Assembly (NCBI GenBank): GCA_965202985.1
Contig: CBDBCF010000001.1
Location: 1,856,001 to 1,920,000 of the forward strand
From: Longimicrobiales bacterium
GTDB lineage: Bacteria; Gemmatimonadota; Gemmatimonadetes; Longimicrobiales; Gaopeijiaceae
Direction of reading: 5' to 3'
DNA: 64,000 nucleotides
Both the position numbers and the translations under genes were made by a program. The notes below the pieces were generated by a model. It worked only from the letters and a program-made list of their open reading frames with translations, ran no database searches and had not been told where the DNA came from. Positions 11,952 to 17,595 of the stretch are shown here, in pieces (positions within the stretch are counted from its first letter, which is position 1; every line of letters starts with the position of its first letter).

Positions 11952-13225
11952 CGAGCGGGGCGGCCGGGGGCGTGTCGAGTCGCTCCCCGGGCGAGCCAGG
12001 CGACCCCGACCGTCTTCGCATCCTGACCATCGTCGGCACCCGTCCGAACTTCGTCAAGGTCGCGTCGCTGATGGAAGCGTACCGTTCGAAGGGCGCCGGC
12101 GTGATCGATCCCGTGCTGGTGCACACGGGCCAACACTACGACGACGCCATGAGCGACAACTTCTTCCGCGACCTGGACTTGTCCCGGCCGGACGTGAACC
12201 TGAACGTCGGTTCGGGAAGCCACGCGGCGCAGACGGCCCAGATCATGACCCGCTTCGAGCAGGTGGTGGTGGATCAGCAGCCCAGCGCGGTGGTCGTGGT
12301 GGGCGACGTGAACAGCACGGTCGCGTGCGCGTTGGTGTGCGCCAAGATGCGCGTTCCCGTGGTGCATGTGGAGGCCGGCCTGCGGAGCGGCGACCGCTTG
12401 ATGCCGGAAGAGATCAACCGCCTCGTGACCGATGCGGTCGCCGACCTGATGTTCTGCACCGAACCGGCGGCGGTCCGCAACTTGGCGCGAGAAGGAGCCG
12501 ATCCCGACAACGTGTTCCTGGTGGGCAACGTCATGGTGGACACGCTCCTTCGGTTCCGGGAGCGTGCCCGATCTTCCCGGGTCCTGGAGGAGCTCGGCGT
12601 GACGCCGGGCAACTACGCCGTCGTGACGCTGCACCGGCCGTCCAACGTGGACGACGGGGCGGTCCTGGCGGGACTTGCGGAGGCGATCACCCAGGTCCTG
12701 TCGACAGTCCCCGTGGTGTTGCCTGCCCATCCCCGTCTTCGCAACGCTCTGGCGCAGGCCGGGTTGGAAGCGTGGTCCGACCGCTCGCGCGACCTGAAGA
12801 TGACCGGCCCTCTTCCCTACCTGGACTTTGTCGAGCTGTTGGCAAACGCCCGCGTAGCGCTCACCGATTCGGGCGGCGTGCAGGAAGAGACCACGGTGCT
12901 GGGCGTTCCTTGCGTCACTTTGCGCAACAACACGGAGCGCCCGATCACGATCGAGGCCGGGACGAACCGGCTGGCCGGGGTCGAGCCCCAAAGCGTCGTC
13001 GCGGCGTTCAGGGCAGCGTTGCGCGACGGTGACGCCGACGGCGATCAGGACCGCGCGCGCCGCCTAGGCCAGGAGCGGCCGCCGGCGTCGGACGGCGACC
13101 GCGAAGGCCTGAAGCGCGACCGACCCCTCCCGCCGCTGTGGGACGGCAAGGCGGCGGAGCGAATCGTGCCGATCCTGGTCGAGCGGTTGCGGGCTCAGCG
13201 CAGCATGACGCGCGCGCCCATCTGA
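11948..13225 (+). CDS. wecB: UDP-N-acetylglucosamine 2-epimerase (non-hydrolysing)
   Basis: GTRPNFVK, HTGQHY, VGDVNST, HVEAGLRS, PEEINR, TLHRPSNVD, TDSGGVQEE, TERP; ATGA overlap with the upstream gene. Confidence 0.95.
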   Translation: MTSGAAGGVSSRSPGEPGDPDRLRILTIVGTRPNFVKVASLMEAYRSKGAGVIDPVLVHTGQHYDDAMSDNFFRDLDLSRPDVNLNVGSGSHAAQTAQIMTRFEQVVVDQQPSAVVVVGDVNSTVACALVCAKMRVPVVHVEAGLRSGDRLMPEEINRLVTDAVADLMFCTEPAAVRNLAREGADPDNVFLVGNVMVDTLLRFRERARSSRVLEELGVTPGNYAVVTLHRPSNVDDGAVLAGLAEAITQVLSTVPVVLPAHPRLRNALAQAGLEAWSDRSRDLKMTGPLPYLDFVELLANARVALTDSGGVQEETTVLGVPCVTLRNNTERPITIEAGTNRLAGVEPQSVVAAFRAALRDGDADGDQDRARRLGQERPPASDGDREGLKRDRPLPPLWDGKAAERIVPILVERLRAQRSMTRAPI

Positions 13226-16200: not shown

Positions 16201-17595
16201 CGCCCGACTGACCGCCGAGTAGCGCGTGCCCGACTCCACATGCACCGCAACCACCGACGCGCCCGTCAAGGGCTGGTCTTCGGCCCCGTACACGAAGCCG
16301 CCCACGCCGCCGGTCGTCACGCCCTGGCCGGCCAGGGCGGGCGCAGGGAAGGCGGCCGCCGCCGCCAGCAGCAGCACCGACGCGACCCCCGCCGAACGTC
16401 TTGGGCCAGCGCCTGCTATACCAGCGCTGTCGCCGGAGCGCGACTCGGCGGACGACGCCTCCGCGGAAGCGGCCTCGGCGGGCTGTCCACGCCGATTGCC
16501 CGCCGAAAGCCCCTGCGCCTCCAGCGCCTCGACGACGGACTTGATGATCCCGTCTCGTTCGTCGTGCACCTGCACGTATACCTGGAAGGCCTGCCACGTG
16601 CCCCTGGGGCCGTCGTCGAACAGCGTGCCGTCGATGACGAAGGGCTCCTTGGAAGCCTTGATCGACGCGCAGCAGTCGGCCCTGGATTCGCCGTGTCCGA
16701 AGCGCCGAAGCGCGATCTTGGCGACGCCCCGCACCGACGCGATGGCGCGGACGATGTCGCGGGCTCGCGCAGAGGGGATGTCCCCGAGTTCGCGAACCGC
16801 CTTGCCCCAAACGGTGGAATGCGATTTGCCGGACGACACGTCCACGCGGACCGCCCCCTCGGGCCGGGGTTCCTTGACGAAGGCGGCCCGGGGGTTCCGC
16901 TTGCGCGCAAGAGAGCGCTTCCACTCCCTGGTCAGCCCTGCGAACGCCAAGTCGCGCTTCCGCTCCCACCTTCGGAAGACGGTGCGAATGGCGTTGTCGA
17001 TGTCCGTGGTGGTCACGGCGCCGTCGATCCATCGGTCGCTCTTCTCCAGCTCGGCGATCACCTCCGGCAGCACGATTCGGGGCACCACGATGTCGTCGTT
17101 CTTGGTCCTGCGGCAGGCCCCCGCCACCGACGCAATGATCTTGCGGCGCGCAAAGGCTTCCTGACGTCCGCCCGACTTGCGCACCTTCCAGCTCGCCTCG
17201 GCGCCGAGCATGTCGCGCAACGCCTTGGCCGCCTTGAGCGCGCTGTCGACGACGGCGTCGGCGTGGAACTGCAACATGCGGTGACGGAGATGGTTCGGGT
17301 CCGCAACGACGACCGGGCGTCCGATCCGGCTGGCGTGCACAACGCCCAAGGTCGTGCCGATCGACTCTCGCCACATGTTGGCAAGGATGCCGTTCGACCG
17401 CTTGATCTCCCCGAGGTCCGCTTCCACGAACTCTTGCGGACTCGACCTCCTGGAGATCATGTCTTCGGTCGGGTCGATGAAGTCGAAGTCCTTGGCGTAC
17501 TTCTTCTTGACGTCGTCTCGCCACTTGTGCTTCTGGATGTCCGAACATCCGCTGATCGGACCGGCGAGATAGACCAGAAACTTGCTTGAGGACAT
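13195..17595 (-). CDS. Fusion ORF: NDT-like domain + ATP-cone + small alpha/beta domain + internal signal peptide + TonB-dependent receptor (Oar-like, carboxypeptidase-regulatory domain)
   Basis: Uninterrupted frame from ATG 17595 (1466 aa). aa1-130 VYLAGPI...FIDP...D...GILAN...GTTLG; aa136-228 KVRKSGGRQEAFARRKI...VTTTDI; aa399-423 signal-like; receptor from 16326 with GGFTGANVNTVTKSGTN, SPRLGFNWD and a C-terminal beta-strand. Confidence 0.8.
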   Translation of the reverse strand: MSSSKFLVYLAGPISGCSDIQKHKWRDDVKKKYAKDFDFIDPTEDMISRRSSPQEFVEADLGEIKRSNGILANMWRESIGTTLGVVHASRIGRPVVVADPNHLRHRMLQFHADAVVDSALKAAKALRDMLGAEASWKVRKSGGRQEAFARRKIIASVAGACRRTKNDDIVVPRIVLPEVIAELEKSDRWIDGAVTTTDIDNAIRTVFRRWERKRDLAFAGLTREWKRSLARKRNPRAAFVKEPRPEGAVRVDVSSGKSHSTVWGKAVRELGDIPSARARDIVRAIASVRGVAKIALRRFGHGESRADCCASIKASKEPFVIDGTLFDDGPRGTWQAFQVYVQVHDERDGIIKSVVEALEAQGLSAGNRRGQPAEAASAEASSAESRSGDSAGIAGAGPRRSAGVASVLLLAAAAAFPAPALAGQGVTTGGVGGFVYGAEDQPLTGASVVAVHVESGTRYSAVSRADGAFSLPNMRVGGPYAVTAEMIGHAARTEEGVFVLLGQTVRVDLHLEARALEIEGIEVEVPAGQGRAAGRTGAATSIGSEQVAALPSIKRTTRDLVRVDPRNDGNLAFAGRNWLYNNVSLDGSYFSNPFGLDDPAPGGQANAEPVPFDAVEQVHVSVAPFDVREGGFTGANVNTVTKSGTNRYQASAYTFARNESLIGNRVEGNEVSASPDLSFNQSGVTASGPVVRDKLLFFVNAEIERRDDPGTDFVASGDDGAPGFGESRVRASVMDSIRARMMSVYGYDPGPYQGYVHETDNDKLLAKLDWNVSDRQHFTFRYSYLDARREQGPHPAAISFNNAGRGPNGSSLPFRNAGYAINNRLHSFALELNSRGDRYANRFFASYNRFRDTRDPFSADYPTIEIGEGGIGYTTLGHEPFSIRNVVHQDVLQFTNNATFYRGRHALTAGANFETFGFFNSFNLFRHGLFFLPWTLSIGSTFASLDEFFAATEDGAKDFDAMIGVGPYKGETTDIGQLSLYAQDEFSVGDNLDVTAGLRVDIPLYFTEPVDNPFSRGLAALDRDGNPETVDQSALPGATPLLSPRLGFNWDVRGDGSTRLRGGTGVFTGRIPFVWVGNVISNPGANPNIWAPGANEGVPQVQTAENTVLQQTFDLNALDADFRWPQVWVTDLAVDQQLPGGWTGTLEVLYGNDVNAVVVRNADLAHPQRTLRDGRPYYGGPGAHELNPDGGAGIYVLDNSSQGYNFNLTAQLGRSFASGSASAAYAFTQAKNNMKTTEIASVMWQNLPMQGDPNNPRLSWSEFGPRHRFTASGTYTRTWSERFATHFGLFAEVAQGGRFTAAGGNRFSFVYAGDVNGDGQAGNDLIYIPRDAGDINLANPSEWALLDAFIEQDPYLSRNRGRTSERMGALAPWFSSLDVRILQDVRVRGQTVQISLDVLNVGNLLNSAWGVRKIASPAATSPLRLVEFDGTGEPVFEFTGPDRTFMSDPGVFSRWRIQMGARVMLR

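Follow-up and report, generated by a model that had tools for sequence, protein, structure and literature searches.

We analyzed a 64,000-nt stretch of the genome of a Longimicrobiales bacterium (GenBank assembly GCA_965202985.1, contig CBDBCF010000001.1, positions 1,856,001 to 1,920,000; hereafter, the window), in which a single open reading frame (ORF) on the (−) strand joins a cytoplasmic module to a TonB-dependent receptor. We found that, in a small clade of sponge-associated Longimicrobiales, this receptor no longer has a start codon of its own and forms the tail of an anti-phage-like cytoplasmic protein. The best explanation, to which we assign a probability of about 60%, is an accidental, tolerated polyprotein that is exported via a buried signal peptide and cut at an LAG|Q motif. 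The parts of the ORF are listed below in window coordinates, together with amino acid (aa) positions.

13195..17595, (−) strand: whole ORF, 1466 aa, comprising a three-domain cytoplasmic module, a linker, a buried signal peptide, and an Oar-type TonB-dependent receptor
17191..17586, (−) strand: nucleoside 2-deoxyribosyltransferase-like (NDT-fold) domain, aa 4–135 (Pfam, predicted fold, and motif alignment)
16891..17190, (−) strand: ATP-cone, aa 136–235 (PF03477, structure match, and NrdR matches)
16507..16857, (−) strand: DUF2103-like domain, aa 247–363, a putative effector with invariant H259, W263, and G264 (profile matches to CARF7/Cas_APE2256)
16402..16506, (−) strand: Ala/Ser/Glu-rich linker, aa 364–398 (low predicted confidence; alignment with P0225/P0348/P0351)
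16327..16401, (−) strand: buried signal peptide, aa 399–423, with RR, hydrophobic core, and LAG|Q cleavage motif
13198..16326, (−) strand: mature Oar-type TonB-dependent receptor, aa 424–1466 (Pfam)

An uninterrupted frame with a buried signal and no start codon beside it

The frame runs from ATG 17595 to 13195 as 1466 codons followed by a stop and contains no internal stop, in agreement with a preliminary description of this DNA made from its letters alone. The signal-like segment noted there (RRSAGVASVLLLAAAAAFPAPALAG|QG; aa 399–423|424) proved to be the most hydrophobic stretch of the protein, with a 12-residue Kyte-Doolittle mean of 2.48 that is bracketed by the signal peptides of nine unfused relatives (1.97–2.93). 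The same description had reported no in-frame start in the linker, and indeed ATG, GTG, and TTG are absent from aa 344 through 406. Specifically, the nearest in-frame start codons are GTG at aa 341 and 343, within the last strand of the front module; a further GTG lies at aa 407, inside the hydrophobic core and 17 codons ahead of Q424, and the Met closest to Q424 is 295 residues upstream. In comparison, all 23 other proteins of the genome that match the N-terminal profile of the receptor have an ATG, GTG, or TTG (ATG in 19) 18–80 codons before the mature start, which was estimated for each; the row for the ORF itself was left out of this count. The frame also stays open upstream of ATG 17595 to 19305, which we did not take as coding because this stretch is antisense to a divergent Vps10/BNR gene and stand-alone homologs of the module start at the equivalent of Met 17595.

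All eight aligned near relatives (fused, deleted, and unfused) carry LAG|QG unchanged. Cleavage at ALA|GQ is less likely than at LAG|Q since the −3 residue for such a cut would be Asp in the outgroup (SDLAG|Q). In alignment, the second half of the linker resembles the n-region of the ordinary signal peptide of the outgroup, which places the lost start just past the old end of the module; that the −1 frame retains a trace of the former "MRF" start around aa 374–377 is speculation. The linker also carries degenerate 5-residue repeats (AEAAS, AEASS, AESRS; 16422–16481 on the (−) strand, aa 372–391) whose third bases differ. No unusual RNA fold was detected in the linker (z −1.05), and neither a sigma-70-type promoter nor a significant terminator was found within 12800–18000.

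The fusion is present in separate assemblies

An assembly artefact joining two genes had initially been considered; it would suit a genome assembly of two contigs, all the more as that assembly may itself stem from two of the runs that reproduce the junction (X1 and X5). Whole or partial copies of the stretch occur in 12 runs from five studies, five of the runs being labeled sponge metagenome. The junction region (15700–17800) lies in one contig in three of the four runs compared (X1, X5, and X10; three studies, short-read), with no stop or indel across the junction, and run X7 does not cover it. Over this region, we counted 0 differences in X1, 2 in X5, and 84 substitutions in X10, a 96%-identical strain from a separate study whose single 3-base gap is upstream of the ORF, leaving no indel within it. 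At least 34 changed codons are listed for X10 (16339–16409 being incompletely listed), of which 18 are synonymous, 16 are nonsynonymous, and none is a stop. Furthermore, the fused-protein cluster has nine members, eight of them 1466 aa long with up to 51 residues different and the ninth a 300-aa piece on a 1.6-kb contig, and fused proteins are drawn from NCBI, ENA, Logan, and JGI assemblies as well as from a second lineage. An artefact of assembly or sequencing is excluded.

Separate genes are ancestral, and the fusion arose once

When the two halves were searched separately, as had been suggested, they were split in six more distant relatives and fused in the clade of the ORF, including protein P0344. 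In these six relatives, the module and the receptor are two genes, which overlap stop-on-start in four. All three other genomes of the genus (G001–G003) carry the halves as adjacent genes with an ATGA overlap (module TGA, receptor ATG) and a Met-led signal, and the overlap at locus L056 is TGATG. An AlbA_2/HATPase_c_4 gene sits between the module and the receptor at L057, and an AAA_15/AAA_21 gene plus a partner sits there at L058. Overall, the two are close together in all six Longimicrobiales relatives examined.

The receptor search returned two closer clusters, at 87% and 93%. The 87% cluster (17 members), the nearest outgroup by receptor identity, has Met-led signals of 40–46 aa in all 15 members listed. 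The 93% sister cluster has three members, namely P0344, which is fused, 1469 aa long, and 91% identical to the ORF, and P0224 and P0343, which are 1126 aa long. In the latter two, a pair of in-frame deletions has removed 73 and 272 residues of the module; they retain the first 12 residues of the module, a 7-residue remnant in the original frame, the end of the last helix, and everything from the linker and signal through an intact receptor, and no other Met precedes the Q. As nearly the whole module was lost yet its start was kept, the receptor seems to need the start codon and not the domains. A tree of 19 mature receptors groups the fused and deleted forms in one clade (support 100/99), within which the deleted forms are nested; the Met-led cluster is the sister of this clade. 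The ancestral state is thus split, with a single origin of the fusion and a later in-frame excision of the module in some strains.

A second case concerns P0232, P0408, and P0410 (3 of the 10 members of the L057-type receptor cluster), whose first ~33 residues are those of the AlbA_2 gene, the upstream neighbor of the receptor in L057 (compare L057:8146-8250). Counting the module fusion, upstream starts were captured twice, independently, by the same receptor. Among 103 module matches, there is no full-length stand-alone protein above 57% identity.

A recent deletion, also proposed in the preliminary description, does not fit: the fusion is common to two lineages that are 91% identical, and joining by a short deletion was rejected because the fused linker stretch is longer than in the split relatives. 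The junction DNA aligns too poorly for the joining mutation to be named. In another lineage, a G001-type module (P0064) loses its resemblance to the family beyond residue ~208 and stops at 304 aa, apparently through a frameshift, as an instance of module decay.

Both halves are constrained after the fusion

Neutral simulation (1000 runs, 4% DNA divergence) yielded ~125 amino acid changes, with 88 in the receptor (minimum 74) and 32 in the module (minimum 23), and the simulated ORF was free of stops in just 2.7% of runs. The observed protein P0111 has 51 changes, of which 34 are in the receptor and 12 are in the module, a comparison that equates the X10 strain with P0111 (16 of 16 listed amino acid changes are shared) and takes the divergence over 2.1 kb as valid for the entire gene. 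The receptor and module counts are under the simulated minima; therefore, the receptor and the module have both been under purifying selection since the fusion. The fused module keeps 55 of the 57 residues conserved in ≥90% of 38 stand-alone homologs, and the receptor is identical to its sister at 968 of 1042 residues.

These data bear on the idea that the fusion crippled the receptor, leaving it poorly exported or dead and slowly decaying. Such a fate would be in keeping with a signal that has no usable start near it, and the literature gave no natural precedent for a soluble 363-aa passenger before an outer membrane barrel. The low number of receptor changes and the identity to the sister argue against it, as do a receptor branch that is not long, the retention of the signal and of LAG|Q, and the fact that the receptor is the sole close copy in the genome, which together make decay very unlikely.

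A proposed route to the outer membrane and what weighs against it

We read the fusion as a tolerated accident of start-codon capture without a designed link, and regulatory coupling between the module and the receptor is unlikely. In the ancestor of the clade, two formerly separate, translationally coupled genes merged into one frame, and the start codon of the receptor was lost. Ribosomes would initiate at ATG 17595 and produce a 1466-aa chain, the front module of which would fold in the cytoplasm. The old signal peptide (aa 399–423) may then enter Sec as an internal hairpin (N-in/C-out) and be cleaved by signal peptidase I at LAG|Q424, so that the freed receptor could proceed to the outer membrane and assemble there, with the module either left hanging on the inner membrane via the signal remnant or released through intramembrane proteolysis. 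The genome encodes signal peptidase I and two M50 proteases, and an N-in, C-out arrangement with a large cytoplasmic domain is an ordinary topology for bitopic membrane proteins. A polyprotein with release by signal peptidase had been one of the initial proposals, and it stands as the best reading, cleavage at LAG|Q and export of the receptor being what we infer. The accompanying idea of a purposely tethered nucleotide sensor has not fared as well since the module is normally free-standing and unrelated to receptors and since sister sequences delete the module and keep the receptor; the module is better described as a candidate defense effector than as a plain sensor.

Several points weigh against an accidental polyprotein exported in this way. 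The hydrophobic core of the buried signal is short and Ala-rich, making the recognition of a signal 400 residues into the chain uncertain. The linker was stop-free in 95% of neutral runs (P 0.95), as expected by chance, and is therefore uninformative on selection for the join itself. The deletions in P0224 and P0343 are known as proteins only, from 5.6- and 7.8-kb contigs. The possible shared origin of X1, X5, and the assembly belongs here too, as do the strain and divergence approximations of the simulation. Finally, V407 is kept in all fused forms, and its in-frame GTG would permit the receptor to be made from an internal start of its own (GTG 407 or a near-cognate codon), with the long product as a by-product that supplies the module and is otherwise degraded. 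An ATA 31 codons before Q424, where relatives start (27–39 codons), could likewise serve. However, initiation at 407 would leave a 17-residue signal without a basic n-region, and the ATA is not a conserved start, X10 having ATT, the sister lineage Thr, and the outgroup Arg at this position. Moreover, both deletions in P0224/P0343 hold the upstream Met frame (~1 in 9 if the frame were irrelevant), and receptor-only proteins number 0 among the 9 + 3 cluster members, which are small numbers. We thus regard an internal start as unlikely. The same substitutions led us to reject the ATA (aa 393; 3.4% of Ile codons) as a decayed start, its fitting distance notwithstanding.

Alternatively, the fusion may have been selected, either because it links each defense effector molecule to one molecule of the receptor, where phages might enter, as well as to the inner membrane, or because it makes a defense gene hard to lose. 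Its maintenance in two lineages with both halves constrained, the conserved residues kept in the fused module (55/57), and the proximity of the module to the receptor in 6/6 Longimicrobiales relatives speak for such selection. Yet this clade alone (the ORF and P0344) is fused, against 103 stand-alone clusters; the receptor is beside the module in just 5 of 60 loci, all in Longimicrobiales (short contigs limit this count); P0224 and P0343 have deleted the module; and other defense-type genes insert at the same spot, which marks the neighborhood as an insertion hotspot. We consider selection for the fusion quite unlikely. Equally doubtful is its functional form, in which an anti-phage effector of a previously undescribed kind, gated by nucleotides and made up of a non-catalytic NDT fold, an ATP-cone, and a DUF2103-like domain, captured the start codon of the receptor. 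If this were true, each receptor molecule would be made together with one membrane-tethered effector, and the defense gene could be lost only by precise in-frame deletion, amounting to addiction by start-codon capture; alternatively, a guard would be produced one-to-one with a possible phage receptor.

The available text of PMC4183432 describes a membrane-anchored anti-sigma factor of Bacillus subtilis, RsiV, that is cut by signal peptidase, likewise at a site downstream of an N-terminal part on the cytoplasmic/membrane side. In contrast to RsiV-type cases, the passenger here is a soluble 363-aa three-domain protein, the product is an outer membrane barrel, and regulation of the cut is not evident. 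The FbcH cytochrome b/c1 precursor has an internal signal peptidase site, although our literature search found no paper on FbcH, and internalized prolipoprotein signals were reportedly engineered and studied in E. coli in 1985 by Hayashi and by Coleman. We found no paper on the module-receptor fusion architecture. What distinguishes this case is the soluble passenger, the narrow clade, and the natural split/fused/deleted series pointing to start capture without a functional link. The accidental polyprotein would offer a natural case of a 1043-aa outer membrane barrel seemingly exported via a signal behind a soluble three-domain protein. The split, fused, and fused-then-deleted forms in one clade provide a built-in control series with which to test how deep in a chain a bacterial signal peptide can act, and the case shows overlapping genes becoming polyproteins without an adaptive link.

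The receptor half is of the Oar type

Pfam matches on the ORF comprise NDT-like/DUF4406 (aa 6–99), ATP-cone (aa 137–208), CarboxypepD_reg (PF13620, aa 431–512; 58.3 bits versus a cutoff of 32.3), and an outer membrane barrel (PF25183 OMP_b-brl_4, aa 640–1406; 176.8 bits versus a cutoff of 30). The PF00593 match of the receptor is below the cutoff, no match to the PF07715 plug was found in the receptor at E ≤ 0.1, and none is listed for 120 homologs. Receptor homologs are annotated as TonB-dependent receptors, and no solved structure showed sequence similarity to the receptor. The receptor shares a signal peptide, a CarboxypepD_reg (PF13620) N-terminal extension, and a large barrel with the Oar subclass of TonB-dependent transporters, as this subclass (Myxococcus xanthus Oar) is described in the portion of PMC6434023 available to us. 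It differs from that subclass in that its signal lies ~400 residues into the chain, after cytoplasmic domains; the N-terminal cleavable signal typical of Oar-type receptors is replaced by an internal signal-like segment with no usable start nearby. The Oar-type N-terminal architectures given in that portion of PMC6434023 are PF13620/PF13715, STN, and AMIN, and cytoplasmic domains are not among them.

The front module belongs to a patchily distributed three-domain family

The preliminary description had seen ~400 aa of nucleotide-binding domains at the front. The NDT and ATP-cone domains hold, a third domain (aa ~247–363) had gone unnamed, and the NDT and ATP-cone Pfam matches of the ORF itself fall below curated cutoffs, so that the assignment rests on family-wide matches and the predicted fold. 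The predicted structure of the module has a mean predicted local distance difference test score (pLDDT) of 83.8, with low values in the linker.

PF05014 is matched in 38 of 39 family members. The NDT fold (aa 4–135) aligns with 7m5h (VIA Z 16.2, root-mean-square deviation [rmsd] 2.2, 126 residues aligned) and 7o62 (VIA Z 15.0, rmsd 2.6, 124 aligned; Foldseek E 1.7e-4). Gly84 occupies the position of the catalytic Glu of NDT/DNPH1 enzymes in alignments with 2a0k and 2khz (weak E-values of 0.29 and 0.53), and Gly is found there in 38/39 members; we take this Glu to be E104 of human DNPH1. Since Gly replaces the catalytic Glu in these weak alignments, the NDT domain probably acts by binding and not as a standard glycosidase, and the conserved E77 and D60 could serve other chemistry. 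Relative to the NDT/DNPH1/MilB N-glycosidases, as covered in the available part of PMC10603095, the fold and the first-strand Tyr motif are shared, whereas the Glu of their GTAFE/GVGYE motif is Gly here and the domain is joined to an ATP-cone and an effector-like domain.

The ATP-cone (PF03477) is matched in 39/39 members (best E 4.5e-12), the ORF alone scoring 23.9 bits, under the cutoff of 25.8. In the model, the cone (aa 136–238) aligns with the NrdB ATP-cone 5olk (VIA Z 13.1, rmsd 2.4, 95 aligned), and the nucleotide-binding motif VxKxxG-E-F-K of the four-helix cone is present in alignment with NrdR. The third domain has a confident fold (pLDDT 91.8) and no clear match among solved structures (best Z 4.7; no Foldseek match at E ≤ 0.001). 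Its profile, run with hmmsearch against 1.84 billion proteins, detects the CARF7/Cas_APE2256 proteins P0171 (E 1.9e-10; hhalign probability 98.3) and P0200 (E 2e-5; 96.4) through their C-terminal domain, and P0200 matches PADLOC CARF7_DUF2103 across aa 4–340. Pfam DUF2103 (PF09876) is matched weakly in 4 of 43 members, with a best E of 0.026 that does not reach the cutoff, and no DUF2103 match was found in the genome of the ORF. In other proteins (P0186, P0189, P0201, P0204, P0206, P0210–P0212, P0215, P0216, P0217, and P0223), the DUF2103-like domain follows YaaA/DUF6884-like domains (10 proteins), a region resembling JukA, or a response-regulator receiver, several with weak E-values; these fusions are candidates for further sensor-effector proteins.

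As regards distribution, a search among 210–669-aa proteins gave 103 stand-alone module clusters. Among 806–2566-aa proteins, the sole match was the ORF itself, P0344 falling outside this result because its cluster is represented by a shorter protein. The module is patchy: it is present in 4 of 61 relatives, and among 401 genomes of the phylum 2 have it complete; these counts take in genomes marked unpublished (G037 and G056), on which no conclusion here depends. Alignment-based searches located 39 + 21 module loci in genome and metagenome collections (Nitrospira, Acidobacteriota, Proteobacteria, Armatimonadota, and others), and single-sequence scans of the same contig collections gave none. 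The module reaches a stop at 57 of these 60 loci and is cut off by the contig end at 3; the receptor is near it at 5. No NCBIfam model matches the module, ESM Atlas gave no usable match, and our literature search found no description of an NDT + ATP-cone + DUF2103-like family, which the supplements of PMC12065111 may list.

A possible defense role for the module

DUF2103-like domains are effectors in Menshen and CRISPR loci, according to the available parts of PMC12065111 and bioRxiv 10.1101/2024.04.23.590562. CARF7_DUF2103 and Menshen NsnC, as presented there, share with the module a nucleotide-binding Rossmann-like domain and a homologous C-terminal domain with an HSTxWG motif; the domains in front are an NDT fold and an ATP-cone here, instead of CARF or inPIN. 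On balance, we lean slightly toward the module being a stand-alone, single-gene nucleotide-gated defense/conflict effector, in which the NDT fold and ATP-cone would gate the DUF2103-like effector, probably upon disturbed nucleotide pools. If the module senses nucleotide pools, it would provide a single-gene handle on the DUF2103-like effector activity of CRISPR type III and Menshen.

We scanned 87 of 133 called neighbors at 33 module loci. At 13 of the 33 loci, a neighbor is a restriction, toxin-antitoxin, nuclease, AAA, Fic, transposase, relaxase, or phage gene. The other 20 loci, which have no such neighbor, speak against a defense role, as does PADLOC-DB 2.0.0, which gives scattered weak matches only and no model that fits the module convincingly; in addition, the neighbor count has no background control and includes related genomes. 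No CRISPR or Menshen genes were present among the neighbors scanned, and no partner gene is conserved across the 33 loci.

Neighborhood of the locus

A divergent gene at 17641–21402 on the (+) strand encodes a secreted Vps10/BNR-repeat protein; it adjoins the module in all six Longimicrobiales relatives examined and is doubled in three. The locus with the Vps10 gene and the receptor is an insertion hotspot in Longimicrobiales, the inserts being AlbA_2 + HATPase_c_4, AAA_15/21 with a partner, DUF6339 plus a cytosine methylase, and PIN/DUF4411 with an IrrE-like peptidase (L057:8119-9564; L058:5513-6772 and 8268-10236; L118:11877-16443; L115:16634-18309). On the other side, 3.6 kb past the receptor end, 17 tRNA genes are packed into <2 kb (7700–9556, (+) strand), and congeners have an ORF-free gap at the position of this array.

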